Source: an uncultured Desulfovibrio sp.
GTDB taxonomy: Bacteria; Desulfobacterota; Desulfovibrionia; Desulfovibrionales; Desulfovibrionaceae
Direction: 5' to 3'
NCBI GenBank assembly: GCA_934546745.1
Contig: CAKTDV010000009.1
Coordinates: 16,070 to 80,069 of the forward strand
DNA length: 64,000 nucleotides
Both the position numbers and the translations under genes were made by a program. How positions within the stretch are numbered: the stretch's first letter is position 1; the number at the start of each line of letters is the position of its first letter. Under the pieces are notes generated by a model that made no database searches, was not told the DNA's origin, and saw nothing but the letters and a program-made list of their open reading frames with translations. Of the stretch, positions 18,653 through 64,000 are shown one piece after another.

Positions 18653-18748
18653 AGCAATGTCAGTTTGAAACGCTGTGCCGTCGCCTCGCGTTTTATCTTT
18701 TCAAGGATGAAACGCTCCAGGCATCCGGCATCGGGAAAAGGAGAGAGT

Positions 18749-38033: not shown

Positions 38034-38046
38034 GGCGGCAGTGTGC

Positions 38047-38068
38047 CGGTGTTTCATATGAAACACCG
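38047..38068. promoter_or_regulatory. Perfect 22-bp palindrome CGGTGTTTCAT|ATGAAACACCG
   Basis: Read directly. It lies 8 nt after the mtnA stop and 14 nt before the ATG of the 640-aa ORF. Confidence 0.4.
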
Positions 38069-49960: not shown

Positions 49961-50704
49961 ATGTTTACCGCGCAACAGCGGATACTGGTTACGGGCGCCA
50001 GCTCCGGCATAGGGCGGGCCATAGCCCTGCGCTGCAATGCCCTTGGCGCGACGGTGCTGGCCAGCGGCCGCAATGCGGATCGTCTGGCTGAGGGGCGGCG
50101 CCAGGCTGTGGAGCCGTCCCGCTGGGTGTCCATTGAACGCGACCTGCTGGAAGATATGGAAACCTTGCCCGGCTGGGTTCGGGGCCTTGCCCGCGAGCAT
50201 GGCAAACTCTGGGGCTTGGCGCATGCCGCCGGGGACGGTTTGATGGACAGCCTGAGAACCTACGGGCTGGCGGAGGCGCGACGCCATTTCGATCTTGGGT
50301 TTCATATGCCGGTGCTGCTTGCGCAGGGCTTTTGCGACAGGCGCAGCAGCGAGGCGGGAGGCGCGCTTCTCTTTCTGACGTCGGCATCAGCCGTTTTTGC
50401 GGAAAAGGGCCATATGGTTTATGGCGCGGCCAAAGCGGCCGTGGCTGCCGCCGCCAAGGCCATAAGCCAGGAAGTGGCCCCGCGCCTGCGTGTGCATTGT
50501 CTGGCCCCCGGCATTGTGGATACGCCGCTGGAAGAGCGCGCCGAAGCCTATATGGGTTCCTCCTACAGGGAGGAGCAGCTGCGGGGCTACCCTTTCGGTT
50601 TCGGGCAGCCTGAGGATGTCGCGCACATGGCGGCCTTTCTGCTTTCAGATCAGGCCCGCTGGATTACGGGGCAGAACTTTGTTCTTGCCGGAGGGCGTTA
50701 CTGA
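49961..50704 (+). CDS. SDR-family oxidoreductase (FabG-like ketoreductase)
   Basis: TGASSGIGRA and YGAAKAA catalytic motifs. Confidence 0.85.
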   Translation: MFTAQQRILVTGASSGIGRAIALRCNALGATVLASGRNADRLAEGRRQAVEPSRWVSIERDLLEDMETLPGWVRGLAREHGKLWGLAHAAGDGLMDSLRTYGLAEARRHFDLGFHMPVLLAQGFCDRRSSEAGGALLFLTSASAVFAEKGHMVYGAAKAAVAAAAKAISQEVAPRLRVHCLAPGIVDTPLEERAEAYMGSSYREEQLRGYPFGFGQPEDVAHMAAFLLSDQARWITGQNFVLAGGRY

Positions 50705-51399
50705 TGCCCCATGTCGTCATTATCGGCAATGCCGGGGCCGCGCGGGAGTGCTACTGGATTTTTCAGGACATGCTGAACAGCTCGGTGGGATTGCGCTGCT
50801 ACTATACGTTCAGAGGCTTTCTGGACTGGCGGGGCCATGCGGGCGATCTCAAGGAGTTCAGCGCGTTGCATTTGGGAACCGCCGGGGAATACGTCATACA
50901 GCCTGACGATCTCTTTGTCATCGGGGTAGGGCATCCCCGGCTCCGCAAGGCAATTTTTGAAGACTTCAAGGCGCGCGGCGGCACGTTCATGAACCTGATT
51001 CATCCTTGGACGGATATCTGCCCGTCCGCCGTCCTTGGCGAGGGGAATGTCTTTCAGCGCGGCTGTACCGTCTACTGCAACGCCAGAATTGGGAATGCCA
51101 ATTACATCAACGGGGCCGTCAATCTTTCGCATGATGCGGAAATCGGCGATTTCAACTTTCTTGCGCCGTACTCGCTTGTGCTGGGAGGGGCAAAACTGGG
51201 CTCCTGCAATCATCTGGGGCCCCATGCCGTCATTCTTGATCATGCCCATGCGGGCGATGGCAACGTCTTTGCCGCGGCAAGCTGTCTTTACCGGGGCTGC
51301 CGCGATGATTGCCTCATGTCCGGCAATCCGGCCTTGAGGGTGGGGAAGGCGGCGGATGTGAACCTGCTGGGTGCTGTGCCGCCATCCAGCGCATCCTAG
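50704..51399 (+). CDS. NeuD/PglD-type hexapeptide sugar N-acyltransferase
   Basis: N-terminal VVIIGNAGAARE Rossmann-like lobe plus a C-terminal LbH. The start overlaps the SDR stop (ATGA-type overlap). Confidence 0.75.
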   Translation: MPHVVIIGNAGAARECYWIFQDMLNSSVGLRCYYTFRGFLDWRGHAGDLKEFSALHLGTAGEYVIQPDDLFVIGVGHPRLRKAIFEDFKARGGTFMNLIHPWTDICPSAVLGEGNVFQRGCTVYCNARIGNANYINGAVNLSHDAEIGDFNFLAPYSLVLGGAKLGSCNHLGPHAVILDHAHAGDGNVFAAASCLYRGCRDDCLMSGNPALRVGKAADVNLLGAVPPSSAS

Positions 51400-51421
51400 G
51401 CACACGCGGTGTGCGGGTATG

Positions 51422-51458
51422 ACAGGCCTCCGGGAGTTTTCCCGGGGGCCTGTGTTTT
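51422..51458 (+). terminator. Hairpin plus T-run after the acylation cassette
   Basis: ACAGGCCTCCGGGA-GTTT-TCCCGGGGGCCTGT followed by GTTTT. Confidence 0.45.
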
Positions 51459-52981
51459 CAGGCGAGTGTCCTGAGGGAGGTGTTCTGTTCCGCAAGCTGG
51501 GCCAGCTGGCGCAGGAGCGCCGCGGTGTTGTCGCGCCTGTCCGCCTCAGCCTGAAGGGAATCCGCCGCCTCATGGTAGAGCCGCGCGATGTCCGTGGACG
51601 CCATATCCCCGTAACGGCGCGTTTCCTCCCCGTCTGGGAGACCGGCAAGACGTTGCAGCCAGGGGGGGAGGACAAGTTCCGGCGCGCGCCGCGCATGAAG
51701 GTGTATGGCAAAGACGGCCAGCGGACGGCTTTGAAAGTAGTAGGCGTAGTCATGGGCGTGCCCGAGGTGGAAGTGTCTCTCTTCCCGCAGAATGGCCATG
51801 ATAACCTTTGCCGCGGAAGCTCCCGGGCTGTTGCCGTCTCTGCGGATGACGAGCCAGTCCGGGTGCGGCCTGCCCGCGATGAAGTCCGCCAGATCATTGG
51901 CAAGGTCTTCCAGGGCGTGTGTAAAAGGAAGGTAGCCGAGGCTATTGATGAAGGCTTCCTTTTCCTGTTCGCTCCACAGGGGGGAATGCGCCAGCGCGTG
52001 TTTGGCAGCCAGCGTCAGTTTGGAAAAGGAATTTGCGGTGTAGAAAAGTCCCTCCCGGCGCAGACCGTTTGCCGTAATCCAGGGCTGGAAGTAGACGGCG
52101 GGCCTGTGGGTAATGGCGCTGAAGGTGCTTGCGATATGCGCAAAGTCCGTAATCATGACCTGCGCCCTGACGAAGGTCTCGAGGTAGCTTGTCTGTGTGT
52201 CGACGGCGAGGCGCGGCTCATGGGCGAAAGCGTCGATGATGTCCCTGACTGTCTCTTCTTCCCTGTTTATTGGTGTGGGTCTGAAAATGATAGTGTGGTC
52301 AGGAAAAGCGGCCAGCAGGGAACGCAGAATCCGTTTGCCATGTTTCTGGAGACGGTTCCCGCCATACTGAAGCGCATGGTGTATTTCCGTTGGCGCGTAG
52401 CAGATGCATTCCGCTTGGAGGCCTTCCCGTTGCTTCGCAAGGAATCGTCGCCGCACCAGACAGAGCTTGGGATAGCCGTAACCCATGAGATAAAAATTCA
52501 TTGCCGGGCGCAGGAGTCTTGCCGGGGGGGAAAAATTGTCCCAGAGCGCCTTGATTTCCTTTCTGCGCTGTTCAAAGGGAAAGCCTACGATAAGGCCGTC
52601 AAAGCTGAAGGACGTTATTGCTCCCTGCAGATAAGCCTGCGGATCTTGAGCCGAGGTACAGCTGTGCGTCATCGCCAGCACCCGCGAGGACGTGGGATAG
52701 CGCACAAATGATTCAAAGTCTGTCGCAATGAAGCAGGCGATACTGTCAAGCGTCTCCACCTCTTCGGGGCGCACCTGAAAGACATGACCAAGACCGTCAA
52801 GGTTCATGACGCCGATGGCCTCGCCCGCCAGGAGGCCGACGGTGCCGTATCCCCGCTCTTGCAGCTCCTTGCCGAGCGCTACCATCCATTCGTCGGGAAC
52901 GACATTGGTGTGCCCGATGTAAAAAGCGACGATTCTTTTTCCGGGAAAAAGATTGCCAATAGTGGTGCTGAGATCCGACAT
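51458..52981 (-). CDS. Paralogue A1 of a ~508-aa transferase family (TagF/glycerophosphotransferase-like C-terminal pattern; candidate phospho-group transferase)
   Basis: 507 aa. ...FRPTPINREEETVRDIIDAF...VMITDFAHIASTFSAITHRPAVYFQPW... About 75-80% identical to A2 by eye. Confidence 0.7.
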   Translation of the reverse strand: MSDLSTTIGNLFPGKRIVAFYIGHTNVVPDEWMVALGKELQERGYGTVGLLAGEAIGVMNLDGLGHVFQVRPEEVETLDSIACFIATDFESFVRYPTSSRVLAMTHSCTSAQDPQAYLQGAITSFSFDGLIVGFPFEQRRKEIKALWDNFSPPARLLRPAMNFYLMGYGYPKLCLVRRRFLAKQREGLQAECICYAPTEIHHALQYGGNRLQKHGKRILRSLLAAFPDHTIIFRPTPINREEETVRDIIDAFAHEPRLAVDTQTSYLETFVRAQVMITDFAHIASTFSAITHRPAVYFQPWITANGLRREGLFYTANSFSKLTLAAKHALAHSPLWSEQEKEAFINSLGYLPFTHALEDLANDLADFIAGRPHPDWLVIRRDGNSPGASAAKVIMAILREERHFHLGHAHDYAYYFQSRPLAVFAIHLHARRAPELVLPPWLQRLAGLPDGEETRRYGDMASTDIARLYHEAADSLQAEADRRDNTAALLRQLAQLAEQNTSLRTLA

Positions 52982-53013
52982 GGCGGCTATTCCTGTTCCT
53001 TGCAGCGGCGCGG

Positions 53014-54540
53014 TTAGAGAGGGGTATTGTCCTCAACGAGCTTTGCCATTCGCCGTAGCAATGCGGCGGTCTCTTCGTTGGAGACATTTTTTTCCGCCCG
53101 CAATGCTGTTGCGGCTTGCCCGTACAGGTGGACAAGCTCCTGTGCGGATACGTCGCCAAACGTCACATGGCTTTCTGTCATCCCTGAAAGTGTTTTGATA
53201 TGTGGGGGGATAGGGATGTCTGGCGATCGCTGGCGATAGAGATGTGTGGCAAAGACGGCCAGCGGACGGCTTTGAAAATAGTCCGCGTAAAGCACGGCAT
53301 GATAGAGTTGAACACCCTTGTATTCTTGCAGGATGGTTTCCATTATTTTTGCGGCGGAGGCCCCCGGGCTGTTGGTGTCTCTGCGGATGACAAGCCAGTC
53401 CGGGCGCGGCCTGCCGTCGATGAAGCTGGCCAGATCATTGGCAAGGTCTTCCAGGGCATGTGTAAAAGGAAGGTAGCCGCTGGAGATGAGAAAGCGTTCC
53501 ATCTCTTCTTCCGCATACGTATGTGCCATGGCGTGCTTGATGGCGGAGATCAGTTCTGAAAACGTTGTTACCGTAGAGAGCGGGGAATTTCCATGGGGGT
53601 TGGAAGCCGTCATCCAGGGCTGGAAGTAGATGGCGGGCCTGTGGGTGACGGCGCAGAACGTGCCGGCGATATGCGCAAGGTCCGTAATCATGACCTGCGT
53701 CCTGACGAAGGTGTCGAGGTAGCTTGTCCGCGTGTCGACGGCGAGGCGCGGCTCATGGGCGAAAGCGTCGATGATGTCCCTGACGGTATCTTCATCCCTG
53801 TTTATTGGCGCGGGCCGGAAAATGACGGTATGCTCAGGAAAGGCGGCCAGTAGGGAACGCAGAATCCGTTTGCCATGTTTCTGGAGACGCTTTCCGCCCA
53901 AATAGGGGGTATACTGAATTCCCATTGGCGCGTAGCAGATGCATTCCGCCCTGACGGCTTCCCGCCGTTTCGCAAGGAATCGTCGCCGCATCAGGCAGAG
54001 TTTGGGGTAGCCGTAGCCCATGAGATAAAAGTCCGCCGATGGGCGCAGGAGTCTTGCCGGGGGGGAAAAATTATCCCAGAGATCCTTGATTTCTCCTTCG
54101 CGGGGCGCAAAGGGGAAGCCCACGATAAGGCCATCGAAGCTGCGGGTACTTATTGCGCCTTGCAGAAAAGCCCCCGGATCTCCGGGTGAACAGCTGTGCA
54201 CGATCGCCAGAACCCGTGATGTCTTTGGGTAGCGCATAGGCTTTTCAAAATTGGTATTATCAATGAAGCCTTCACAATCTGTCACAATGAAGCAGGCGAT
54301 ACTGTCAAGTGTCTCCACCTCTTCGGGGCGCACCTGAAAGACATGACCAAGACCGTCAAGGTTCATGACGCCGATGGCCTCGCCCGCCAGGAGGCCGACG
54401 GTGCCGTATCCCCGCTCTTGCAGCTCCTTGCCGAGGGCGACCATCCATTCGTCGGGAACGACATCCGTGTGACAGATATAGAAGGCGACCACGGTTTTGC
54501 CGTTGAAAAGTTCACGGATGCGGGCGTTGAGTTCTGACAC
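53014..54540 (-). CDS. Paralogue A2 of the same transferase family
   Basis: 508 aa from GTG 54540, with AAGGAGG 7 nt upstream and aligned to the A1 start. The longer track ORF adds 32 implausible residues. Confidence 0.7.
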   Translation of the reverse strand: MSELNARIRELFNGKTVVAFYICHTDVVPDEWMVALGKELQERGYGTVGLLAGEAIGVMNLDGLGHVFQVRPEEVETLDSIACFIVTDCEGFIDNTNFEKPMRYPKTSRVLAIVHSCSPGDPGAFLQGAISTRSFDGLIVGFPFAPREGEIKDLWDNFSPPARLLRPSADFYLMGYGYPKLCLMRRRFLAKRREAVRAECICYAPMGIQYTPYLGGKRLQKHGKRILRSLLAAFPEHTVIFRPAPINRDEDTVRDIIDAFAHEPRLAVDTRTSYLDTFVRTQVMITDLAHIAGTFCAVTHRPAIYFQPWMTASNPHGNSPLSTVTTFSELISAIKHAMAHTYAEEEMERFLISSGYLPFTHALEDLANDLASFIDGRPRPDWLVIRRDTNSPGASAAKIMETILQEYKGVQLYHAVLYADYFQSRPLAVFATHLYRQRSPDIPIPPHIKTLSGMTESHVTFGDVSAQELVHLYGQAATALRAEKNVSNEETAALLRRMAKLVEDNTPL

Positions 54541-54671
54541 GGAGTCCTCCTTGTGTTTCTTTTGCGGTAGATACGGAAAGAGCACTGTACAGACGATCGG
54601 GCGGGGTGTCAAGCCGACATCCGTTTTTTGGAACAATATTTGCTTTAGATGCTTCCAAGGGGGGAAATTTC

Positions 54672-55346
54672 ATGATTTTGACACGCCGCACAGGCATCAC
54701 CATGCGCGTCGTCCGTTCCGACTATGGAGAGACACGGGATGCGCTGGCGCGCGACTGGCCGGTGCTGCTGGAACGGCTGGGGCACGTTTATGGTTTTGCG
54801 CCGGAGTGGTTCCCGCTGCCCAATATGGGCGAGGACAGCGTTGCCCTTGCGCGCCGCTACGGCGTCCGGGCCTTGCTCCTGACTGGCGGCGACGACAGAG
54901 GCGCTACGCCGGATCGTGACCTTACGGAAGAGGCACTCCTGCGCTGGGCCGCCGGGGAGCGTCTGCCGGTGCTCGGTGTCTGCCGGGGCGCGCAGATGCT
55001 GGCCCGGCAGGCCGGGGCGGCGCTCATCGCCGTACACCCCGGTAGGCATGTGGCCGCGCGGCATCGCATTGTCTGGAATACGGACGGGAACGGCGGGCCC
55101 TTCTGGAACAGCGCGCTTGCCGCGCGGGATACGGAAGAGGTCAACTCCTTCCACCGGTGGGGGCTTTCCGGCACGGCGCTTCCGGCGAACCTCCATGCCG
55201 TTGCCGTCTGTCCCGAAGACGGAAGCGTCGAGGCGTTCTGTCATGTCTCCCTGCCGTGGATGGGCGTTTTCTGGCATCCCGAACGGGAGGCAACACCCCG
55301 CGAGAGCGATATGGCGATCCTGCGCCATCTCTTTGCGGAGGCCTGA
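54672..55346 (+). CDS. Class-I glutamine-amidotransferase-like / peptidase C26 hydrolase (cj1417-like)
   Basis: Nucleophile elbow LGVCRGAQML and His-Glu motif VFWHPE. 224 aa. Confidence 0.75.
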   Translation: MILTRRTGITMRVVRSDYGETRDALARDWPVLLERLGHVYGFAPEWFPLPNMGEDSVALARRYGVRALLLTGGDDRGATPDRDLTEEALLRWAAGERLPVLGVCRGAQMLARQAGAALIAVHPGRHVAARHRIVWNTDGNGGPFWNSALAARDTEEVNSFHRWGLSGTALPANLHAVAVCPEDGSVEAFCHVSLPWMGVFWHPEREATPRESDMAILRHLFAEA

Positions 55347-55437
55347 AAAAGCGTTTCGTGGCGTCGTCCGTTGGCGCAGGCCGCCGGTCTTCCCCGCACA
55401 GGGCGGGGGGGAAAAGATTTCCAGAAAGGGAGTTCGC

Positions 55438-57855
55438 GTGAGTGAGGATAAGAAAGAAAGAAGCAAATCCGGAACCAAGGCGGAAACGCTGGAGCTTCTG
55501 CTCCGTCACGGTTTTCCCGTGCCGCCGTTGCGCTATGTTACCAAAGAGCGCTGGGACGCCGTACCGGATGCCGTGCTCGCCGAAATACGCGCCGCGTTTC
55601 CGCAAACGCCGCTGGCCGTGCGTTCCTCGGCATGTCAGGAGGACGGTTGCGCCGCCTCGCTGGCCGGAGCCTTTGACAGTGTGCTGCATGTGCCGTCGCA
55701 GGATGCGGCGGCATTGCGGGCCGCCATCGTCAAAGTGGCGTCCCGCTACGGCAGCGCGGCGGATCAGATTCTGATCCAGCCCATGATACCTCATGTGGCC
55801 CTGAGCGGCGTCGTCATGACGCGCACGCTGGAGGACGGTTCCCCCTACTACGTCATCAACTACGACGATGTTTCCGGGCGGACGGATACCGTTACCGGCG
55901 GCAGCGGCATCAGCAAGACGGTGTGCGTCTACCGGGGAGCCAGGGCGGAATATTTCGACTCGCCGCGCCTGCGGGCGGTGCTGGATCTGGTGCGCCGGCT
56001 TGAGGACTTCTTTTCAGGATTGCCGCTGGACATTGAGTTTGTCGTGGATGCGCGCGGCGCCACGCATCTGTTGCAGGCGCGTCCCATTGCCGCCGCGCGG
56101 CACTGGCGTTCGCAGGTGGCGGAGGATGTCTCCCGGCACATCCGGCACGTGGAGACCTACGCGCGCGACATCATGGCGGAACGTCCCGGCCTGCCGGGCA
56201 GGCGCAGTCTGCTTGGCGTCATGCCGGACTGGAACCCGGCGGAGATTATCGGCGTCACGCCGCGTCCGCTGGCCCTGAGCCTGTACCGGGACATCATCAC
56301 CCGCCGTGTCTGGCGGGTGGCCCGGCAGCACATGGGCTATCGCGCCCTGCCGCCGGTGGAACTGATGGTCTCGCTTGCGGGGCGGCCCTATATCGACGTG
56401 CGCGCAAGCTTCAGCTCCTTTCTTCCCGAAGGCGTTTCCCGGCAGACGGCGGCCCTGCTCACGGACGCCTGGCTTGATCGCCTTGACACGCATCCCGAAC
56501 TGCATGATAAGGTGGAGTTCGCCATTGTGCCCACCGTGCTGGATTTTGACTTTGACGCCACCTTCCGGGAGCGCTATGGGGATGTGCTCCCCCCGGCGGA
56601 ACGGCTGCGGTACAAGGCCGCCCTGCGCCGCCTGACAAACCGGGCCTTGCGTGTTTCCGGCATGTGCCCCGCAGAGGGAAGCCTGGAAAAGGCCATGAAC
56701 GACGCGCAATTGCTGGAACTGCGGCAACGCGCGCTCATGCCGCCCGTCATGCCGTCCGATTCGCGGGAAGGCACGCCGTTCTCGCTGGTGGCCCGGCTGA
56801 GCACCCTGCTGGAGGAATGCAGGGAATGGGGAACGCTGCCTTTCTCCATTGCCGCGCGCCATGCCTTCATGGCGGAAAGCCTGCTGCGATCCGCCGTGCG
56901 GCGCGGCGCGGTGCGGGAGGAGCGCCTTGCGGCCTTCAAGCGTTCCGTGCGCACCGTTTCCGGCGAATTGTCGCGGGACTTTGCCGAAGCTGTCCGCAAC
57001 CCGGCGATGCGGGGGGATTTCATGGCGCGCTACGGGCACTTGCGGCCCGGCACGTATGACATCCTGACGCCCTGCTATGCGCAACGCGATCTGTTCAGCC
57101 ATGTGGCGGCCCCCCAGGAAGCGCCACCGGTGGCGGCATTCAGCCTCACCGCGCGGGAAAGCGACGATCTTTCCCGGCTTCTGGATGAGGCCGGGCTGGA
57201 CTGCGCGCCGCGACGCCTGCTGGACTATGCGCGGCGCGCCATTGCCGGAAGGGAATGGATCAAGTTTGTTTTTACGCGCCATGTGTGCGCCATTCTTGAG
57301 ACCGTGGCCGCATGGGGGCAGTGTCAGGGGCTTGATCGCGAGGACTGCGCCATGCTGCCGCTGGAAGTCATGACGGGCAGTCTGAACGCGCCGTTGCCCG
57401 ACGAGGCGCGGGCGTACTACGGGGCCGTTATCGAGGAACAGCGCCGCCAGCACGATCTGGCCCGCTCCCTGCGGCTTGCGCCCCTGATCCGTTCCGTGCG
57501 CGACGTCTATGTGGCGGCGCAGCAGCGCAGCGAGCCTAATTTCATCACCGACAGGCATATTGAGGCGCCGGTGGCCGCGCTGGACGGCCACGCCATGCCA
57601 GAATCGCTTCAGGGACGCATCGTGTGCATCGAAAGCGCGGATCCCGGCTATGACTGGCTCTTTACCCGCGACATCGCCGGGCTGGTCACCCGCTACGGCG
57701 GCGTCAATTCCCATATGGCCATCCGCTGCGCGGAATACGGCCTGCCCGCGGCCATCGGTTGCGGCGGCATTCTCTACGAGCGGGCCAGCCGCGCCACAAG
57801 GCTGTTGCTGGATTGCGCGGGAAAACGTATAACCCCGCTGGGGGCGGAGGTGTAA
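55438..57855 (+). CDS. PEP-utilising/PPDK-like three-domain phosphotransferase (cj1418 L-glutamine-kinase-like)
   Basis: N-terminal ATP-grasp-type PPDK_N region (KAETLELL...VRSSACQEDG...SLAGAFDSV). The C-terminal swivel carries the phospho-His context RYGGVNSHMAIRCAEYGLPA. GTG start after GAAAGGGAG. 805 aa. Confidence 0.75.
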   Translation: MSEDKKERSKSGTKAETLELLLRHGFPVPPLRYVTKERWDAVPDAVLAEIRAAFPQTPLAVRSSACQEDGCAASLAGAFDSVLHVPSQDAAALRAAIVKVASRYGSAADQILIQPMIPHVALSGVVMTRTLEDGSPYYVINYDDVSGRTDTVTGGSGISKTVCVYRGARAEYFDSPRLRAVLDLVRRLEDFFSGLPLDIEFVVDARGATHLLQARPIAAARHWRSQVAEDVSRHIRHVETYARDIMAERPGLPGRRSLLGVMPDWNPAEIIGVTPRPLALSLYRDIITRRVWRVARQHMGYRALPPVELMVSLAGRPYIDVRASFSSFLPEGVSRQTAALLTDAWLDRLDTHPELHDKVEFAIVPTVLDFDFDATFRERYGDVLPPAERLRYKAALRRLTNRALRVSGMCPAEGSLEKAMNDAQLLELRQRALMPPVMPSDSREGTPFSLVARLSTLLEECREWGTLPFSIAARHAFMAESLLRSAVRRGAVREERLAAFKRSVRTVSGELSRDFAEAVRNPAMRGDFMARYGHLRPGTYDILTPCYAQRDLFSHVAAPQEAPPVAAFSLTARESDDLSRLLDEAGLDCAPRRLLDYARRAIAGREWIKFVFTRHVCAILETVAAWGQCQGLDREDCAMLPLEVMTGSLNAPLPDEARAYYGAVIEEQRRQHDLARSLRLAPLIRSVRDVYVAAQQRSEPNFITDRHIEAPVAALDGHAMPESLQGRIVCIESADPGYDWLFTRDIAGLVTRYGGVNSHMAIRCAEYGLPAAIGCGGILYERASRATRLLLDCAGKRITPLGAEV

Positions 57856-57859
57856 GCCC

Positions 57860-58648
57860 ATGATTGCGTTGATTCTTGCGGCGGGACGCGGATCCCGCCT
57901 CCGGGAACTGACCGACGGCAGGCCCAAATGTCTGGTACCCCTCGCGGGAAAACCTCTGCTGCGCTGGCAGTGCGACGCCCTGCGGAACGCGGGTGCACGG
58001 CGTCTGCTGGTCGTGCGCGGCTATCTGGCGGATCGCCTTGTGCCGGAGGCGGCGGGCCTGCCCGCGGGCGCCTTTGAAACCGCCCTCAATCCGCAATGGG
58101 AACACAGCAACATGCTTTCGTCCCTGCTCTGTGCCGGGCCGTGGCTGGAGGCGGCCTTTGCCGCCGGGGAAAGGGAGGCGGTCATCAGCTATGCGGATAT
58201 CGTCTATCCGGCGGATCATGTCCGTACCCTGTGCGCCTTGGGCGGCGATGCGCCCCTTGCCATTACCTATGATACGCAATGGGAGGCGCTCTGGCGCGTC
58301 CGCTTTGCCGATCCCCTGTCGGACGCCGAAAGTTTCGCCTGCAGGGACGGCGAGTTGATCGACATTGGCCGCGCTCCGCGCCGTCTGGAGGATGTGCAGG
58401 GGCAGTATATGGGGCTTCTGCGGGTGACGCCGCGGGGGTGGGAGGCCGTGGCCGCCGCCTGTCGCGATCTTGGCGCGGCGGTCGCCCGTACCGATATGAC
58501 GGGCTTTTTGCGCCTCCTGCTGGAACGGCGCGTGCCCATCGCCACGGCGGCGGTGGCGGGGCGCTGGTGCGAGGTGGACAGCCAGGACGATTTGCGCGCC
58601 TATGAGGCGAAGCTGCGACAGGGCGGCTGGAGCCATGACTGGCGGTAG
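57860..58648 (+). CDS. Nucleotidyltransferase (cj1416 cytidylyltransferase-like)
   Basis: MIALILAAGRGSRLRELTDGRPKCLVPLAG is the signature NTP-transferase loop. Confidence 0.8.
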   Translation: MIALILAAGRGSRLRELTDGRPKCLVPLAGKPLLRWQCDALRNAGARRLLVVRGYLADRLVPEAAGLPAGAFETALNPQWEHSNMLSSLLCAGPWLEAAFAAGEREAVISYADIVYPADHVRTLCALGGDAPLAITYDTQWEALWRVRFADPLSDAESFACRDGELIDIGRAPRRLEDVQGQYMGLLRVTPRGWEAVAAACRDLGAAVARTDMTGFLRLLLERRVPIATAAVAGRWCEVDSQDDLRAYEAKLRQGGWSHDWR

Positions 58649-58689
58649 GCCGGTTGTGTGCGCACAATGCAAAAGAAAAAGGAGATGAC

Positions 58690-59442
58690 ATGAAAACGGA
58701 ATGGGATTATACGACGCTGGCGCAGGGGTATCTGAAACGCCCTGAATATGCGCCGGATGCCCTGAGGCAGATTTTTCAGATTGCCGGACTGCATCCTGGG
58801 GATACGGTGTGCGATATTGGCGCGGGTGTGGCGCATCTGACTCTTCCTCTGGCGGCATTTGGCTGCCGCGTGGACGCCGTGGAACCCAACGACGCCATGA
58901 GGGAACTGGGGAAACGGCGTACCGCCAACCTTGACGGTGTCCAATGGTTTGAGGGAACCGGGGAGGATACCGGACGTCCCTCCGGGATATATGACTTCGT
59001 TTCGTTCGGTTCCTCCTTCAACGTGTGTGATCGCGCCAAATCTCTTGTGGAAACGCACCGTCTGCTCAAGCCCGGCAAATGGTTCGTCTGCCTGTGGAAC
59101 CACAGGAATCTGGAGGATCCTGTGCAGCGGGCCATAGAAGGCATCATCAGGGAGGCCATTCCCGACTATGCCTACGGTACGCGGCGGGAGGATCAGACAG
59201 AGGTGATCACGGCGTCCGGTCTGTTTACGGATATCACGCCCGTACAGGGAGCGGTGCGGCACCGGCAGACACCGGAGGATATTGTGGAGGCATGGCGCTC
59301 CCATTCCACCCTGCACCGTCAGGCCTGTGAAAAATTCGACGCCATTGTTGCCCGGATTGAGAAGTATGTTACCGGGCTTGGTCAGGCGGAGATTGAGATC
59401 CCCTATACGACGCACGCCTGGGTTGCGCGCCGCGCGGGCTAG
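58690..59442 (+). CDS. Class I SAM-dependent methyltransferase
   Basis: VCDIGAGVAHL motif I. ATG 58690 follows AAAGGAG; the track ORF starts at an upstream TTG. Confidence 0.8.
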   Translation: MKTEWDYTTLAQGYLKRPEYAPDALRQIFQIAGLHPGDTVCDIGAGVAHLTLPLAAFGCRVDAVEPNDAMRELGKRRTANLDGVQWFEGTGEDTGRPSGIYDFVSFGSSFNVCDRAKSLVETHRLLKPGKWFVCLWNHRNLEDPVQRAIEGIIREAIPDYAYGTRREDQTEVITASGLFTDITPVQGAVRHRQTPEDIVEAWRSHSTLHRQACEKFDAIVARIEKYVTGLGQAEIEIPYTTHAWVARRAG

Positions 59443-59446
59443 CGCC

Positions 59447-59986
59447 ATGACGCCAGACGCGCATAACGGACGGGTGATCTGGATTACCGGCCTTTCCGGC
59501 GCGGGAAAGAGCACCCTTGCCCGCGCCCTGATGGAACATCTGCCGGGGGCTCTGCTGCTGGACGGCGACGATCTGCGGGCCGTGCTGGGCGCGACGGCCT
59601 CCGGTTTTGACCGTGCCGGACGTCTGGCGCTGGCCCAGACCTACGCCCGTCTCTGCAGGCTGCTGGCGGAACAGGGGCACACCGTCGTCATGGCGACCAT
59701 CTCCCTGTTTCACGAAATCCATGCGTGGAACAGGGAGAACCTGCCCGGCTATCTGGAAGTCTTTCTGGACGTGCCCGAAGCCGTGCGCAGGGAACGCGAT
59801 CCCAAGGGGCTTTATGCCGCGGCAACGGCGGGAACGCTGCGTCATATGGCCGGGGCGGAAACCGCGGTCGATGTGCCGCAAGCACCGGATCTGGTATTGC
59901 CAACAGCCGAAATGACGCTGGAAGAATGCGTGGCCGCCGTGCGGGAACGTCTTGGGGCAGTGGCGGCCGGCCTTCCGCGACGCTGA
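59447..59986 (+). CDS. Adenylylsulfate-kinase-fold P-loop kinase (cj1415 cytidine-diphosphoramidate-kinase-like)
   Basis: VIWITGLSGAGKSTLA, LDGDDLR. 179 aa. No cysD/N/H partners are nearby. Confidence 0.8.
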   Translation: MTPDAHNGRVIWITGLSGAGKSTLARALMEHLPGALLLDGDDLRAVLGATASGFDRAGRLALAQTYARLCRLLAEQGHTVVMATISLFHEIHAWNRENLPGYLEVFLDVPEAVRRERDPKGLYAAATAGTLRHMAGAETAVDVPQAPDLVLPTAEMTLEECVAAVRERLGAVAAGLPRR

Positions 59987-60027
59987 CGGGAGTTTCTCCC
60001 ACCACGTGGGAAATGCGACAGCTCCAC

Positions 60028-60079
60028 AAAACAGAGAAGCCGTTTGCCGTACTTTTCCGGCAAACGGCTTCTCTGTTTT
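60028..60079. terminator. Bidirectional terminator (22-bp perfect stem) between convergent operons
   Basis: AAAACAGAGAAGCCGTTTGCCG-8 nt-CGGCAAACGGCTTCTCTGTTTT. Confidence 0.7.
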
Positions 60080-60092
60080 GCGCGGGGAAGCC

Positions 60093-61619
60093 TTATGGCG
60101 TTTCTGCCGTTTCCGCCGGAGAGAGAATGTCGCCGTATGCCTGTTCCACGACGGCGGCCAGCGCATGGCAAAAAACCGTCCTGTCCCTGTCCGGTAGCAG
60201 GATATGGCGGGACGGCTGTTTTTTCTGTTCCGTGCGGCACAGGGATTCGTGTTGCCGGATAAATGTCTGCGTTTCTGGGCAGTAATCGCTTATGGGTGCT
60301 GGGCGAAAAAAGGGCGAAAGTGTTGTTTCAGGCAGCATGAGGCGGGTACGCCCCTCCTGTGTACTGACGGACAGCAGCAGCGGTTTTTTCCAGTAGAAGC
60401 GAATACTCATGTGCTTATAGAAATTGTTCAGCGCTTGGAAGAGGGGAAAACGGCATAGGGGTTCATAATACAAATCAGGACGGCAGGCGCGCAGGGTGCG
60501 CAGGAAAAAGCCAACTTCCTCCGCCGGAGTGGTAAGCTCCATGTCTCCTATGTAGTCGCAGGGGAGCGCAACGGCGTCGCTGGGGACGGCGCCGGAAAGA
60601 ATCTGTGCCAGATAGTGGAAAAAAAGCTCCCGGCTGTGCCCGGGGCGGAAGATGAGCTTTTCCCGCAGGGCGGCGAGTTCCGGGTGATCGCCGTTTTTCC
60701 AGGCAAGGCTGGACTGGAGGGCCAGAAGCATGTCCTCAGGGGTGCGCACGGGAGAAAAGAGATCGTTCGCATCCCATGCTCTGGGCATGTTTCGGCTGGG
60801 GAGGAAGACGGCGGGCTGTCCTGTGGCCAGCGCAAAGAGTTGTCCTGTTGTGGAGGTGTGATCGCAGAGCAGGGCGATCGCGGAAGCCATGTGGCGCAGT
60901 GTGCTGCGGCTGCTGTCCATACGAAAGCGTTTTGTCGTGCGGAAGGCCGTTGCCAGAGGTTCGTAGCGGGGGCGTTCGCCGGGGAAGGGGCGCAACACGA
61001 AATCGTACTGTGGGAAATGGGTCAGGCACGCATCGATGAAGGCTTTGCGTTCCTCCATGAGGAGCGGAACGCCATGCGCGCTGTGGCCGCAGGTATACAG
61101 AATCGTTGCCCTGTGTGGTTCCGCAAGCCAGCGCCGGCGGAGTTCGTCAAGCTTGAGGCAGCCAAACGGCAGCAGATAAAGCTCCTCCCGGCGGCGTCCT
61201 GATGTCAGGCGTGGAAAGGACGGGGGAACGGCGCCCCCGTCCTGCGTCAGATAATAGTCCGCATTGCCGACATAGGACGGATAAATTTGGAGCATATGTT
61301 CCGTATGCGGCGGGGGAAACCAGAACGCATGGGGCAGGGCAAGCAGTGGTACTTCAGGGGGAACGAGATTTATGGGCGCGGACTGATCCAAGGTAAAAGC
61401 CGCCCGCACGTGCTCTTTTTCAAAAAAGTCCGGGGGCAGCGTTGCCGGAGAAAAATCTCCAGTAGCTGGTCGTGGCGTCATATCCGTATAGACGCGGGTG
61501 ATCCGCCCGCCGCGTTCTTCCAGCAGAGGGCGGATGCTTTCGTCGAGGCGGTGCATATAGACGGAATTTGCAAGGAAGACATAGCTTCCGGAAAAGTCGA
61601 AGGCATCAGTGGCGATCAT
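60093..61619 (-). CDS. Paralogue B1 of a second ~508-aa transferase group (distantly similar to A1/A2)
   Basis: 508 aa. ...FVLRPFPGERPRYEPLATAF...ALLCDHTSTTGQLFALATGQPAVFLP... AAGGAG RBS. Confidence 0.7.
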   Translation of the reverse strand: MIATDAFDFSGSYVFLANSVYMHRLDESIRPLLEERGGRITRVYTDMTPRPATGDFSPATLPPDFFEKEHVRAAFTLDQSAPINLVPPEVPLLALPHAFWFPPPHTEHMLQIYPSYVGNADYYLTQDGGAVPPSFPRLTSGRRREELYLLPFGCLKLDELRRRWLAEPHRATILYTCGHSAHGVPLLMEERKAFIDACLTHFPQYDFVLRPFPGERPRYEPLATAFRTTKRFRMDSSRSTLRHMASAIALLCDHTSTTGQLFALATGQPAVFLPSRNMPRAWDANDLFSPVRTPEDMLLALQSSLAWKNGDHPELAALREKLIFRPGHSRELFFHYLAQILSGAVPSDAVALPCDYIGDMELTTPAEEVGFFLRTLRACRPDLYYEPLCRFPLFQALNNFYKHMSIRFYWKKPLLLSVSTQEGRTRLMLPETTLSPFFRPAPISDYCPETQTFIRQHESLCRTEQKKQPSRHILLPDRDRTVFCHALAAVVEQAYGDILSPAETAETP

Positions 61620-61644
61620 GGGGGAATCTCCTTATCCAAGAATG

Positions 61645-63171
61645 TTATGGCGTCTTCGCCGTTTCCGCCGGAGCGAGAATGTCGCCGAATGCCTGTTCCA
61701 CGACGGCGGCCAGCGCATGACAGAAAACCGTTTTGTCCCTGTCCGGCAACAGGATATGGCGGGATGGCTCTCTTTCCTGTTCCGTGCGGCACAGGGATTC
61801 GTGTTGCCGGATAAATGTCTGCGTTTCTGGGGAGTAATCGCTCATGGGCGCGGGGCGGAAAAAGGGCGAAAGCGTTGTTTCAGGCAGCATGAGGCGGGTC
61901 TGTCCGTCCTCTTTGCTGATGGACAGCAGCAGCGGTTTGTGCTGTTGGAAGCGAGTATTGAGCTGCTGGTAGAAATTGGCCAGCGCCTGGTAGAGGGGAA
62001 AGCGCCGCAGCGGCTCATAATAGCAGTCAGGACGGTTGGCGCGCAAGGTGCGCAGGAAAAAGCCAACTTCCTCCGCCGGAGTGGTAAGCTCCATGTCTCC
62101 TATGTAGTCGCAGGGGAGCGCAACGGCGTCGCTGGGGACGGCGCCGGAAAGAATCTGTGCCAGATAGTGGAAAAAAAGCTCCCGGCTGTGCCCGGGGCGG
62201 AAGATGAGCTTTTCCCGCAGGGCGGCGAGTTCCGGGTGATCGCCGTTTTTCCAGGCAAGGCTGGACTGGAGGGCCAGAAGCATGTCCTCAGGGGTGCGCA
62301 CGGGAGAAAAGAGATCGTTCGCATCCCATGCTCTGGGCATGTTTCGGCTGGGGAGGAAGACGGCGGGCTGTCCTGTGGCCAGCGCAAAGAGTTGTCCTGT
62401 TGTGGAGGTGTGATCGCAGAGCAGGGCGATCGCGGAAGCCATGTGGCGCAGTGTGCTGCGGCTGCTGTCCATACGAAAGCGTTTTGTCGTGCGGAAGGCC
62501 GTTGCCAGAGGTTCGTAGCGGGGGCGTTCGCCGGGGAAGGGGCGCAACACGAAATCGTACTGTGGGAAATGGGTCAGGCACGCATCGATGAAGGCTTTGC
62601 GTTCCTCCATGAGGAGCGGAACGCCATGCGCGCTGTGGCCGCAGGTATACAGAATCGTTGCCCTGTGTGGTTCCGCAAGCCAGCGCCGGCGGAGTTCGTC
62701 AAGCTTGAGGCAGCCAAACGGCAGCAGATAAAGCTCCTCCCGGCGGCGTCCTGATGTCAGGCGTGGAAAGGACGGGGGAACGGCGCCCCCGTCCTGCGTC
62801 AGATAATAGTCCGCATTGCCGACATAGGACGGATAAATTTGGAGCATATGTTCCGTATGCGGCGGGGGAAACCAGAACGCATGGGGCAGGGCAAGCAGTG
62901 GTACTTCAGGGGGAACGAGATTTATGGGCGCGGACTGATCCAAGGTAAAAGCCGCCCGCACGTGCTCTTTTTCAAAAAAGTCCGGGGGCAGCGTTGCCGG
63001 AGAAAAATCTCCAGTAGCTGGTCGTGGCGTCATATCCGTATAGACGCGGGTGATCCGCCCGCCGCGTTCTTCCAGCAGAGGGCGGATGCTTTCGTCGAGG
63101 CGGTGCATATAGACGGAATTTGCAAGGAAGACATAGCGTCCGGAAAAGTCGAAGGCAGTGGCGGCGATCAT
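61645..63171 (-). CDS. Paralogue B2, identical to B1 over residues ~12-375 with a divergent C-terminal ~135 aa
   Basis: Start set at MIAATAFDF (ATG 63171) by alignment with B1. The track ORF's extra 108 N-terminal residues look non-coding for this gene. Confidence 0.7.
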   Translation of the reverse strand: MIAATAFDFSGRYVFLANSVYMHRLDESIRPLLEERGGRITRVYTDMTPRPATGDFSPATLPPDFFEKEHVRAAFTLDQSAPINLVPPEVPLLALPHAFWFPPPHTEHMLQIYPSYVGNADYYLTQDGGAVPPSFPRLTSGRRREELYLLPFGCLKLDELRRRWLAEPHRATILYTCGHSAHGVPLLMEERKAFIDACLTHFPQYDFVLRPFPGERPRYEPLATAFRTTKRFRMDSSRSTLRHMASAIALLCDHTSTTGQLFALATGQPAVFLPSRNMPRAWDANDLFSPVRTPEDMLLALQSSLAWKNGDHPELAALREKLIFRPGHSRELFFHYLAQILSGAVPSDAVALPCDYIGDMELTTPAEEVGFFLRTLRANRPDCYYEPLRRFPLYQALANFYQQLNTRFQQHKPLLLSISKEDGQTRLMLPETTLSPFFRPAPMSDYSPETQTFIRQHESLCRTEQEREPSRHILLPDRDKTVFCHALAAVVEQAFGDILAPAETAKTP

Positions 63172-63194
63172 GGAGTAACCCTCTGGATCTGGGT

Positions 63195-64000
63195 TCAGGT
63201 GGGCGGATTGACATCCAGGAACCACATATACGCCCGTCCGTTCGTATTGGGTCCGTATTGTCGGAGCTGCTGAAGCTGAGTTGGCCGTCCCAGCAAAGGT
63301 AGCGGCCTTCTCCGGCGGCGGCGATGGCTTCCCGAGGCGCGGAGGCAAAGGGGAGCCATTCGCCATCCTCCATGAGGCGCACCCTCCAGGGGGCGACATC
63401 CGCGGGAAGCGGCAGCGGGCAGGCATACGTATGGCCGGAGACATGCTCAAACGGTTTTTCCAGAGGCGTATGTTGCCTGGCTGAGAGGATGGCATCCCAG
63501 AAATCGCCTGCCGCGCTCCGTTCCTCGCCGTTCTTCTGGCGTTGGTGCGCCGCTCAGGGAATAGTTGAGGTAGTTCGTATAACTGTAGAGGGCAAGATAC
63601 AGCAACCTGTTGGCTTTGCAGGGCAGTGTGGCGTTGTGGACAGCCCTTGCCATATTCCCGGTATGGTGCAGCACCCCCCAGGAATAGACGATGTCCACAG
63701 GCGGCAGGCTCCGCAGAAAATCTTCGTTGAGGGCGTCTCCCCGCAGGATGGTCCAGTTTTTGGGGGAGCCTGCCTGACGGTGGAGTTCCTGCGTCGCGGC
63801 TACGGAATGGGGATCGTAGTCAAAGCTGACGATGGGGCCGGCCCCGGCGCGCCACGCCGCCAGCGAACTCAGGCCGCTGCCGCAGCCGATGTCCAGAAAG
63901 CTGAGCCCGGCAAGCGAGAGATCCTCCCGTCCGAGAAAGCGGCAAAGGTCCCTCCGGGACTGCCGTATTGTTTCCTCATTGAGATGGTGGCGGATAAACG
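63195..64000 (-). pseudogene. Class I SAM methyltransferase with C-terminal extension, apparently disrupted by frameshift(s); 5' end outside the window
   Basis: Frame 1 reads ...LDIGCGSGLSSLAAW...VYSWGVLHHTGN... and stops at 63447. Protein-like sequence continues in another frame with no start codon (GDFWDAILSARQHTPLEKPFEHVSGHTYACPL...GRYLCWDGQLSFSSSDNTDPIRTDGR). A third frame (NTNGRAYMWFLDVNPPT*) stops at 63195, 23 nt before the B2 start. Confidence 0.5.

Follow-up and report, generated by a model that had tools for sequence, protein, structure and literature searches.

B1 and B2, two tandem genes of a Desulfovibrio from the human gut that belongs to the D. piger group, appear to be an old pair of recombining paralogues that combine a TagF-like core with a module kept in two versions and that would transfer (O-methyl)phosphoramidate to two acceptor sites, a reading to which we give a probability of about 0.6. 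The pair was identified in the window, by which we mean the whole stretch of 64,000 nucleotides that was analysed.

The B1/B2 pair and its identical block

B1 and B2 are both intact ORFs of 508 codons on the minus strand (Table 1). Direct comparison bore out the repeat described in the original prediction, including its period and its extent over codons ~12–375: positions 60495–61585 are identical base for base to 62047–63137, giving a block of 1,091 bp at an offset of 1,552 that corresponds to nt 35–1125 of either gene (codons 12–375). This block was the longest exact run at that offset in a self-comparison of the window. Similarity at offset 1,552 extends from 60093/61645 (the stop codons) to ~61619/63171 (the start codons), and beyond these limits it is at the background level of ~25%. 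The two genes differ at 63 nt in total, 5 of them in gene nt 10–34 and 58 in nt 1126–1518. An identity of 75–80% had been predicted for the last ~135 codons; this holds for the protein (80% identical, 27/133 residues differing) and for the first 150 nt (75.3% in nt 1126–1275), but not for the whole 3' DNA, which is 85.5% identical (91.6% in nt 1276–1524). Under a uniform identity of 85.5%, the chance of a 1,091-bp identical run is ~1e-74. The longest homopolymer in the two genes is T7, and neither contains a G or C run of at least 6. The exact B2 protein recurs in NCBI/ENA assemblies and at locus L125.

A distance of 107 nt separates the end of B1 from the convergent Cj1415-like gene, and the hairpin just past the B1 stop codon sits between the two convergent operons; judged from its predicted fold it is likely a terminator and may act bidirectionally. 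The methyltransferase gene upstream of B2, compared by tblastn with a 394-aa orthologue from L001, lacks residues 145–296 and has a frame change, its former C-terminal half persisting out of frame at ~63208–63500.

Table 1. Features of the B1/B2 locus, in window coordinates
Feature	Position	Strand	Evidence
C-down, second gene of second pair, 507 aa	51458..52981	-	27% to B1 over residues 146-324
C-up, first gene of second pair, 508 aa, diverging from operon	53014..54540	-	24% to B1 over residues 146-306, E ~1e-7
Candidate Cj1417-like gamma-glutamyl-CDP-amidate hydrolase (GATase1/Peptidase_C26)	54672..55346	+	PF07722, PF00117; 27% to Cj1417, E 7e-24
Candidate Cj1418-like L-glutamine kinase, 805 aa	55438..57855	+	NF004508 855 bits (cut-off 501); 34% to Cj1418 full length, E 8e-148
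Candidate Cj1416-like CTP:phosphoglutamine cytidylyltransferase	57860..58648	+	Pfam NTP_transf_3; 33% to Cj1416, E 2e-50
SAM-dependent methyltransferase, Cj1419/Cj1420-like	58690..59442	+	Pfam methyltransferase domains; 39% and 33% to two C. jejuni methyltransferases
Candidate Cj1415-like cytidine diphosphoramidate 3'-kinase (APS-kinase fold)	59447..59986	+	NF004041 160.7 bits (cut-off 127); 35% to Cj1415, E 6e-40
Long hairpin and T-run on minus-strand transcript, just past B1 stop	60026..60081		RNA fold -50.8 kcal/mol, z = -8.1
B1, downstream paralogue, 508 aa, architecture as B2, type-1 module	60093..61619	-	ORF; AlphaFold; Foldseek; hhalign
Type-1 dimorphic module, B1 residues 379-411, ACRPDLYYEPLCRFPLFQALNNFYKHMSIRFYWKK	60387..60485	-	13 diagnostic sites; sister-lineage comparison
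1,091-bp block copy in B1	60495..61585		exact identity; 3 SNPs vs L004 in both copies
B2-B1 spacer, 25 nt, AGGAG ribosome-binding site before B1 ATG	61620..61644	-	read from sequence
B2, upstream paralogue, 508 aa, type-2 module	61645..63171	-	ORF; no Pfam/NCBIfam match; whole protein 94% identical to B1
Type-2 dimorphic module, B2 residues 379-411, ANRPDCYYEPLRRFPLYQALANFYQQLNTRFQQHK	61939..62037	-	13 diagnostic sites; sister-lineage comparison
1,091-bp block copy in B2, gene nt 35-1125, codons 12-375	62047..63137		exact identity to 60495-61585
Methyltransferase gene upstream of B2, cut by window end	63447..64000	-	Pfam methyltransferase domains

Concerted evolution around a dimorphic module

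Comparison across related strains showed that divergence is not uniform along the pair. In a sister lineage (L001–L003, ~90–94% nt identity to the window) the tandem copies are 100% identical only in alignment columns ~700–1200, a within-genome identity that may be inflated, as short-read assemblers can force repeat copies identical and a few real differences inside the block are possible; the related loci examined (L001–L004, L125) are short-read metagenome contigs with a coverage of 3–6x where stated. The block of the sister lineage differs from the window by 6–8% and between L001 and L003 by 1–4%, both copies being alike in each case, and stands alongside diverged 5' parts of 60–90% identity. 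Its 3' boundary lies at the same position as in the window, where the tract takes in the entire GT-B core (1,091 bp); in the sister lineage it covers ~500 bp. Just 3' of the boundary (columns 1201–1300), positional orthologues are 94–95% identical and paralogues 74–78%. Segment-wise identities among the window, L001 and L003 thus place paralogues closer than orthologues inside the tract and the reverse outside. Between L004 and the window there are 8 differing sites, 3 of which are changed in both copies at offset 1,552, and L125, from an independent Hadza assembly, is 100% identical to the window across 12.4 kb including the pair. A tandem pair is also present in a more distant relative (L131, 49–52%), where the two copies are 70% nt identical to each other and convergent to APS-kinase-like and methyltransferase genes.

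Because a tandem pair is found in this ~50% relative as well, the duplication is old: judged from the loci compared, B1 and B2 did not arise by recent duplication but have long stood in tandem. The original prediction had offered recent duplication or ongoing gene conversion; the blocks of L001–L003 and the shared SNPs of L004 support conversion as the explanation of the sharp identity boundary, and the pairs at ~50% identity speak against recent duplication. Under the mechanism that we propose, intragenomic recombination, by gene conversion and unequal crossing-over, would repeatedly overwrite one copy by the other, the conversion tract would stop at residues 379–411, of which two old conserved versions would be kept, and the tail behind them would be shuffled between copies. 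The same recombination would give rise to single-copy chimeric alleles in the population.

The two versions of the 33-codon module, types 1 and 2, differ at 13/33 residues, and every population variant carries the 13 diagnostic sites as one set, either all of type 1 or all of type 2. Between types, dS in the module stretch is ~0.41–0.44. Across lineages the module shows one amino-acid change in type 2 (residue 407, compared with the sister lineage's upstream copy) and three in type 1, for which residues 376–422 gave a dN of 0.06 versus a dS of 0.14. In population variants, the tail (residues 418–506) occurs in mixtures of the two types. In the sequences compared, the strictly dimorphic part is residues 379–411 only, and the claim that the C-terminal part is kept different stands for these residues but fails for the tail.

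The persistence of the module might have a purely mechanical cause, the two copies being functionally redundant and the segment surviving because its 25% divergence blocks conversion tracts, not for differing specificities. The tract does end exactly at the drop to 75% identity, the tails beyond the segment are freely shuffled and single-copy alleles occur with either module type; the boundary itself could be kept by divergence that blocks heteroduplex extension rather than by selection. We consider redundancy possible but unlikely, since each type has changed little between lineages (1 and 3 changes in 33 codons) while the types differ at 13/33, and since both lineages have type 2 in the upstream gene and type 1 in the downstream gene.

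Fold, family and the predicted phosphoramidate operon

Neither B1 nor B2 had a Pfam or NCBIfam match, and a PDB sequence search with them found nothing. For PF04464, the TagF/TarF family, there was no match for B1, C-up or C-down at E<=10 and none for B2 at E<=0.01. A profile search with the B family gave 9 representatives at E<1e-30 among 1.84 billion; distant matches cover residues ~145–350, and some of these carry PF04464 (for example, P0194, E 2e-12). Alignment with hhalign to PF04464-bearing proteins gave a probability of 99.3% (E 1.4e-20, 299 columns, residues 29–345), and the invariant H97 of the PHAFW motif, a candidate active-site histidine, aligns to the invariant His of that set, in an alignment that holds no solved TagF structure. 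The AlphaFold model of B1 (pLDDT 86, pTM 0.83) had GT-B proteins as its top Foldseek matches in the PDB, such as UDP-GlcNAc 2-epimerase, MurG and TreT (E ~3e-7). Domain modelling, which the original prediction had proposed, resolved a TagF-like GT-B core (residues ~1–345) and a family-specific alpha/beta C-terminal domain (~350–508, ~160 residues) with no match among solved structures (best E 0.74). By these profile comparisons and this model, B1 and B2 are divergent TagF-like GT-B enzymes. They share with TagF/TarF the profile-profile homology over ~300 residues, the two-Rossmann GT-B fold and probably an invariant His at the aligned position, and by analogy would be expected to use a CDP-linked donor to place a phospho-group on a sugar hydroxyl. 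They differ from TagF/TarF in lying below the Pfam threshold, in the extra C-terminal domain, in the tiny size of the family proper and in adjoining a phosphoramidate operon, with no glycerol-phosphate cytidylyltransferase in the parts of the locus examined.

One point speaks against the main reading: GT-B enzymes mostly bind their acceptor through the N-terminal domain. The identical block had been taken for the catalytic or donor-binding part of the protein; instead, it comprises the entire GT-B core, and with it the N-terminal Rossmann domain, the usual acceptor binder, which is identical in B1 and B2. The C-terminal domain may recognise the acceptor, as the original prediction had presumed.

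The MeOPN-type setting suggested for the pair was recovered in its neighbourhood. As in the C. jejuni MeOPN operon, Cj1415-, Cj1416-, Cj1417- and Cj1418-type enzymes and a methyltransferase are contiguous (54672–59986, 27–39% identity), with the kinase models above their curated cut-offs. Cj1415–Cj1418 make CDP-phosphoramidate 3'-phosphate, and based on homology to these enzymes, which were characterised in vitro (PMC11800397), we infer CDP-phosphoramidate as the operon product. The Desulfovibrio operon differs in its gene order (1417-1418-1416-MT-1415), in containing one methyltransferase, in its host, a deltaproteobacterial gut commensal, and in having a TagF-like pair, not DUF2972 genes, on either side. 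The second of these pairs, C-up and C-down, which the original prediction had missed, lies on the other side of the operon at 51458–54540 and consists of distant B1/B2 paralogues that are 67% identical to each other in a mosaic pattern, including a 125-nt identical run; C-up is also called as a 508-aa gene in L125.

In the literature examined, transfer of MeOPN to the capsule sugar in C. jejuni is assigned to Cj1421/Cj1422 by genetics only. The MeOPN transferases are adjacent paralogues with a similar N-terminal and a differing C-terminal part (PMC5808241, PMC3907429), residues 1–244 being common and the C-terminus differing by acceptor (PMC5808241), in agreement with the original prediction. 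Cj1421/Cj1422 (also CJJ81176_1420/1435 and HS1.07) resemble B1/B2 in adjoining phosphoramidate genes (cj1415–cj1420), in combining a shared N-terminus with a divergent C-terminus and in occurring as one or two copies per strain. The Campylobacter enzymes, however, are ~610–640 aa in size and contain a transmembrane segment between the N-terminal part and a C-terminal DUF2972 domain (PF11186) (PMC5808241), whereas B1/B2, of 508 aa, have neither and are built on a TagF-like GT-B core. The maximum 19-residue Kyte-Doolittle mean was 1.11 for B1 and 1.46 for B2 (usual cut-off 1.6), indicating no transmembrane-like segment as judged by hydropathy only. DUF2972 was not matched by B2 at E<=0.01 or by B1, C-up and C-down at E<=10; as a positive control, ORFs in the cj1421 position matched it in C. 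jejuni GP013 (L066, 3.5e-38), Campylobacter sp. (L061, 1.5e-29) and H. didelphidarum (L100, 2.9e-42). Membership of B1/B2 in the Cj1421/Cj1422 family was ruled out on this basis. The Campylobacter genes also switch by poly-G slippage, and B1/B2 vary by conversion and copy loss.

Given homology to CDP-glycerol glycerophosphotransferase-type proteins, B1/B2 might transfer another CDP-activated group (glycerol- or ribitol-phosphate) or polymerise a teichoic-acid-like chain, their adjacency to the operon being coincidental. The surrounding locus holds many other glycan genes, and the members of a 40–45% identical branch of the family (P0022, P0011, P0026) sit in another conserved gene context, where phosphoramidate genes are absent within 9 kb. 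The link to the pathway therefore does not extend to the entire family. We nevertheless regard another CDP donor as rather improbable. No glycerol- or ribitol-phosphate cytidylyltransferase was found among the genes examined (49961–64000 and, as seen in L125, 9 kb past the window end), the adjacency of the pair to phosphoramidate genes is kept in L001–L004, L125 and L131 from ~50% to 100% identity, a second, distant paralogue pair lies on the other side of the operon, and in the Helicobacter loci L099, L005 and L107 TagF-like ORFs are immediate neighbours of the glutamine-kinase gene.

Given their position convergent to a full Cj1415–Cj1418-type operon with a methyltransferase, B1 and B2 most likely decorate a surface glycan with (O-methyl)phosphoramidate taken from a CDP-linked donor. 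In this scheme the convergent operon would make the CDP-linked phosphoramidate donor through enzymes like Cj1418, Cj1416, Cj1417 and Cj1415, together with a Cj1419-like methyltransferase, and B1/B2 would pass the group to glycan hydroxyls with release of CMP or 3'-phospho-CMP, as in the use of CDP-glycerol by TagF. The acceptor glycan would be built by the surrounding glycosyltransferase cluster, and each of the two module types would guide the same reaction to its own acceptor site. More tentatively, B1/B2, and perhaps the C pair, may represent an unrecognised class of soluble TagF-like phosphoramidate transferases that stands in for the DUF2972 membrane enzymes of Campylobacter. A 33-residue cassette within the orphan C-terminal domain would set the acceptor site, and gut Desulfovibrio populations would alter the decoration of their surface by conversion and copy gain or loss, not by poly-G slippage.

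Population variants and significance

An assembly artefact, with a single gene or two alleles of a mixed population written as a tandem, or diverged copies made identical by repeat collapse, is very improbable. The contigs of L001–L004 and L125 are of low coverage, contigs of ~1.7 kb with 388–392-aa fragments resemble collapsed repeat units, and L132 has one copy with its junction inside the block. However, the unique junction at which the 3' end of B2, the spacer and the 5' end of B1 meet needs at least two copies, the same structure recurred in assemblies made independently in different studies and from different samples, L125 agrees with the window throughout its 12.4 kb, and the diverged 5' parts were resolved in L001–L003. 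The only residual doubt concerns the perfect identity of the block and the exact copy number of two. The expectation that recombination can use the repeat to change copy number or to form chimeras agrees with single-copy chimeric alleles on other contigs, L132 and L133; in L133 the crossover lies within an 18-nt identical stretch, and the protein is found on 5 contigs. A very recent tandem duplication, with the C-terminal 130 codons diverging fast under positive selection and no gene conversion, would fit zero differences over 1,091 bp as expected from a fresh copy, but its probability is close to nil given a dS of 0.23–0.44 in the diverged part versus 0 in the block, a conserved orthologue of each module type in the sister lineage, the diverged 5' parts beside that lineage's own identical block, and the tandem pairs in relatives at ~50% identity.

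Partial gene conversion with a preserved variable segment is familiar from tandem and dispersed paralogues for bacterial surface structures. B1/B2 share with these the tracts that are identical within a genome while orthologues differ, the sharp boundaries, the mosaic population alleles and the copy loss by unequal crossing-over, and as plain gene conversion between tandem paralogues the case is unsurprising. It differs in that B1/B2 are predicted glycan-decorating enzymes, not exposed proteins, and in that the preserved unit is 33 codons.

On the capsules of C. jejuni, O-methyl phosphoramidate serves phages as a receptor and is a determinant of immune evasion, and to our knowledge its transfer step has never been reconstituted. 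In a 2022 review, the glutamine kinase was still termed C. jejuni-specific (PMC9561416). If the proposed function holds, a complete pathway would be placed in a common human-gut sulfate reducer and paired with a different, apparently soluble transferase family, which may ease in vitro study and might show which donor is really used. For experiments on specificity, the dimorphic cassette and the naturally occurring chimeras would then provide a ready map, and the coexistence of one-copy and two-copy alleles would suggest recombination-based surface variation in a gut commensal.

Structure and family of the tandem genes

The stretch from 60093 to 63171 is a direct repeat (period 1,552 bp), whose two units encode the candidate TagF-like transferases B2 (upstream) and B1 (downstream), separated by a spacer of 25 nt containing an AGGAG ribosome-binding site. 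Positions 60495-61585 are identical to 62047-63137 over 1,091 bp, the maximal exact run at offset 1,552, which corresponds to nucleotides 35-1125 of both genes. Five differences were found in gene nucleotides 10-34 and 58 in nucleotides 1126-1518, with identities of 75.3% (dS 0.44) in nucleotides 1126-1275 and 91.6% (dS 0.23) in nucleotides 1276-1524. At the protein level, 30 amino acids differ, at residues 4, 5 and 12 and at 27 positions within 379-506. Given the divergence of the 3' part, an identical run of 1,091 bp has a probability of about 1e-74, and the identical 5' block followed by diverged 3' ends is as originally described. The feature is genuine and is well explained by concerted evolution of an old tandem pair, accompanied by a preserved dimorphic cassette of 33 codons and by copy-number polymorphism.

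No sigma-70-like promoter was detected in a scan of 59800-64000. RNA folding confirmed a long hairpin between B1 and the convergent operon (-50.8 kcal/mol, z -8.1) that the terminator scan had missed. The methyltransferase gene upstream of B2 is shorter than its 394-amino-acid orthologue in the related locus L001, with residues 145-296 absent and the old C-terminal part persisting out of frame; upstream of it lies a GT2 gene, and in the related loci L001-L003 a gene for a 687-amino-acid GT2 separates the methyltransferase gene from the first B gene.

Features of the window and of related loci
Feature	Location	Coordinates	Strand	Remarks
NrfA-type cytochrome c nitrite reductase	window	15253-16878
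NapA-like molybdoenzyme	window	18665-21019
TIGR04326 protein	window	36111-38066
C-down	window	51458-52981	minus	second tandem pair
C-up	window	53014-54540	minus	second tandem pair, divergent from operon
Convergent operon	window	54672-59986	plus	five enzyme types, beyond hairpin from B1
Cj1417-like Peptidase_C26/GATase	window	in 54672-59986	plus
Cj1418-like PEP-utilising kinase	window	55438-57855	plus	NF004508, 855 bits (cut-off 501)
Cj1416-like NTP transferase	window	in 54672-59986	plus
Methyltransferase	window	in 54672-59986	plus	39% identical to Cj1419-type methyltransferase
Cj1415-like APS-kinase-fold protein	window	in 54672-59986	plus	NF004041 above cut-off
B1	window	61619..60093	minus	intact 508-codon gene, downstream unit
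B2	window	63171..61645	minus	intact 508-codon gene, upstream unit
Shortened methyltransferase	window	63172-64000	minus	upstream of B2
Single B gene	L132	3109-4635
Single B gene	L133	4001-5527
Helicobacter partner ORFs	L099	1016-2632 and 6015-7151
Helicobacter partner ORF	L005	2-1528
Helicobacter partner ORF	L107	2916-4526
Helicobacter partner ORF	L100	2-1468

Neither B1 nor B2 had a Pfam or NCBIfam match (B1 none even at E<=10), and a PDB sequence search with the family returned nothing. The family is very small, with 28 clusters in an index of 5.8 billion proteins and nine representatives at E<1e-30 in a profile search of 1.84 billion; 305 weak matches of that search are confined to residues ~145-350, and PF04464 (TagF-like CDP-glycerol glycerophosphotransferases) is present in some of the matched proteins. 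When the profile was compared with that of proteins bearing PF04464, the probability was 99.3% (E 1.4e-20) over residues 29-345, and H97, invariant in the PHAFW motif, aligned with their invariant histidine. An AlphaFold model (pLDDT 86, pTM 0.83) had a GT-B fold in which residues ~1-140 and ~145-345 each form a Rossmann domain, and its top structural matches in the PDB were UDP-GlcNAc 2-epimerases, MurG and TreT. Residues ~350-508 form an additional alpha/beta domain (pLDDT 86 when modelled separately), for which a fold search among solved structures gave no match (best E 0.74). The acceptor of GT-B enzymes is usually bound by the N-terminal domain; as this domain is identical in B1 and B2, any difference in specificity would come from the C-terminal domain, or there may be none.

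Gene conversion and copy number

The GlmS encoded in the window is 88% identical to that of D. piger and 75-78% to other Desulfovibrio GlmS, a protein encoded nearby falls into a 90%-identity cluster (or closer) with a D. piger entry, and contigs identical or near-identical to the window came from Hadza human-gut metagenomes, which together place the source among the gut Desulfovibrio of the D. piger group.

The original prediction allowed for recent duplication or ongoing gene conversion, and only the latter agrees with the related loci. The same pair, encoding 507 and 533/534 amino acids, is present in L001-L003 (~90-94% identity to the window), where complete identity between the paralogues is limited to alignment columns ~700-1200 and identity in the 5' 700 nt is 60-90%. 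Within the identical block both copies are 6-8% removed from the window, and the 1-4% by which L001 and L003 diverge from each other there is the same for either copy. Divergence in these relatives is not uniform across the pair: their own identical block stops, at its 3' end, where that of the window does. Just 3' of that point, identity is 94-95% between positional orthologues and 74-78% between paralogues; what holds the edge of the converted tract in place may be a mechanical effect of divergence and not selection. The window block is itself a mosaic of two ancestral 5' parts, resembling the downstream gene of L001 in columns 201-300 and its upstream gene in columns 401-600. A strain 99.86% identical to the window (L004) differs at eight sites, three of which are present in both copies, 1,552 bp apart.

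Recent duplication was ruled out by the conversion pattern of L001-L003 and by L131, a locus of 49-52% identity that also has a tandem pair (70% DNA identity, convergent to APS-kinase-like and methyltransferase genes), so that the duplication must be old. An assembly artefact was dismissed because the unique junction segment of B2 tail, spacer and B1 head necessitates at least two copies and contig L125 matches the window exactly over 12.4 kb. Comparison of these sequences indicates that the pair is shaped by gene conversion, not by recent duplication or artefact. The related loci are low-coverage short-read metagenome assemblies, and short-read assemblers can make repeat copies look identical; that the block is perfectly identical, that SNPs are shared between the copies and that there are exactly two copies is therefore provisional.

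The repeat had also been regarded as a substrate for copy-number change and chimera formation, and such products were identified in contigs from other Hadza gut samples, L132 and L133, in which a single chimeric B gene replaces the pair. On L133, a contig of 63 kb, the gene lies between the methyltransferase and Cj1415-like genes and is B2-like to nucleotide 1233 and B1-like from nucleotide 1252, the crossover falling in the diverged 3' region within a run of 18 identical nucleotides, too short for k-mer collapse; its protein was found on five contigs. The L132 gene has the 5' end of B2 and the remainder of B1, with the crossover inside the identical block; recombination within the block would be expected to give this product, but an assembly collapse could do so as well. 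These single genes point to copy-number polymorphism in the population. Several assemblies also contained contigs of ~1.7 kb with B-gene fragments of 388-392 amino acids (P0316, P0319, P0321 and P0322), whose N-terminal stretch (PPPTNTTLNTFLSRL...) differs from the matching stretch of B1/B2; these could represent either collapsed repeat units or alleles whose N-terminal domain is different.

The proposal that the C-terminal part is kept different held for residues 379-411 and failed for sites in 418-506. When population variants in the 90% cluster were typed at all 30 sites separating B1 from B2, the 13 sites in residues 379-411 always travelled together as one of two module versions (type 1 or type 2), and sites in 418-424, 443-447 and 466-506 occurred in every combination with either, for example a type-2 module with a type-1 tail in the protein P0315 and the reverse in P0326 and P0322. 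In both lineages the upstream gene is of type 2 and the downstream gene of type 1, and between lineages one residue of the type-2 and three of the type-1 module have changed over 33 codons. For dN/dS, only type-1 orthologue values and protein alignments were used; the upstream gene of L001 has a one-codon tail deletion. In the model, the module corresponds to helices two (short) and three (long) of the C-terminal domain.

Candidate phosphoramidate operon and the likely role of the B proteins

Proteins of the convergent operon are 27-39% identical to those of C. jejuni GP013 (E down to 8e-148). A PDB sequence search with the Cj1418-like kinase gave generic PEP-synthase matches only. The Cj1418-type glutamine kinase has been called C. 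jejuni-specific in a 2022 review (PMC9561416); we found the family to be distributed very widely (5,404 clusters at E<=1e-20), with genome matches including Pelagibacteraceae, Helicobacter, Woesearchaeota, Methanosarcinales, Lachnospiraceae and Desulfovibrionaceae. A search of genome contigs with the degenerate pattern MxDWNPAE yielded 120 loci in fixed 8-kb chunks, including C. jejuni GP013, none of them close to the window (best kinase protein identity 45%). Past the window end, the identical contig L125 encodes a methyltransferase, GT2, DegT, WbqC, radical-SAM/SPASM, GT1, asparagine synthase and GT4, a gene content indicating a surface-glycan locus. The window also encodes a TIGR04326 surface-carbohydrate biosynthesis protein, which suggests that the glycan region reaches well upstream.

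On the other side of the operon, C-up and C-down (~507 amino acids, no Pfam match) share 67% identity, and their identity to B1 across the second Rossmann domain is 24-27%. Based on their mosaic DNA identity (40-100% per 75-nt window) and an identical run of 125 nt, this pair may also be subject to patchy conversion. A branch of the B family at 40-45% identity (P0022, P0011 and P0026 on L126, L128 and L129) has a conserved, non-glycan neighbourhood of HD-GYP response regulator, MFS, Ogt, TPR, DsrE and TamA/TamB genes, with phosphoramidate genes absent within 9 kb, and guilt by association was rejected for the family as a whole. On L129 the gene is again in a tandem pair (65% protein identity).

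The resemblance to the paralogous MeOPN transferases of C. jejuni, put forward in the original prediction, agrees with the literature: the adjacent Cj1421 and Cj1422 have N-termini in common (residues 1-244); a transmembrane segment comes next, then a C-terminal DUF2972, and their C-termini diverge with the acceptor (PMC5808241; PMC3907429). ORFs at the cj1421 position in C. jejuni GP013 (L066, gene incomplete, cut at the contig end), a Campylobacter MAG and H. didelphidarum contained DUF2972 (E 1e-29 to 1e-42), whereas it was absent from B1/B2 and the C pair; B1/B2 also lacked transmembrane-like segments and poly-G/C tracts. B1 and B2 are thus analogues of Cj1421/Cj1422, family membership being rejected on the basis of the DUF2972 test and the literature.

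In the Helicobacter loci L099, L005 and L107, which belong to H. valdiviensis and two Helicobacter MAGs, TagF-like ORFs lie directly upstream of the glutamine-kinase gene, suggesting that TagF-like enzymes are recurrent partners of the phosphoramidate pathway. In H. didelphidarum (L100) a DUF2972 ORF takes this place, in Campylobacter fashion, so two unrelated transferase types seem to alternate beside the same pathway. Judged from homology and neighbourhood only, B1 and B2 are likely to transfer the phosphoramidate group, a chemistry to which the TagF-like enzyme class had no earlier link.
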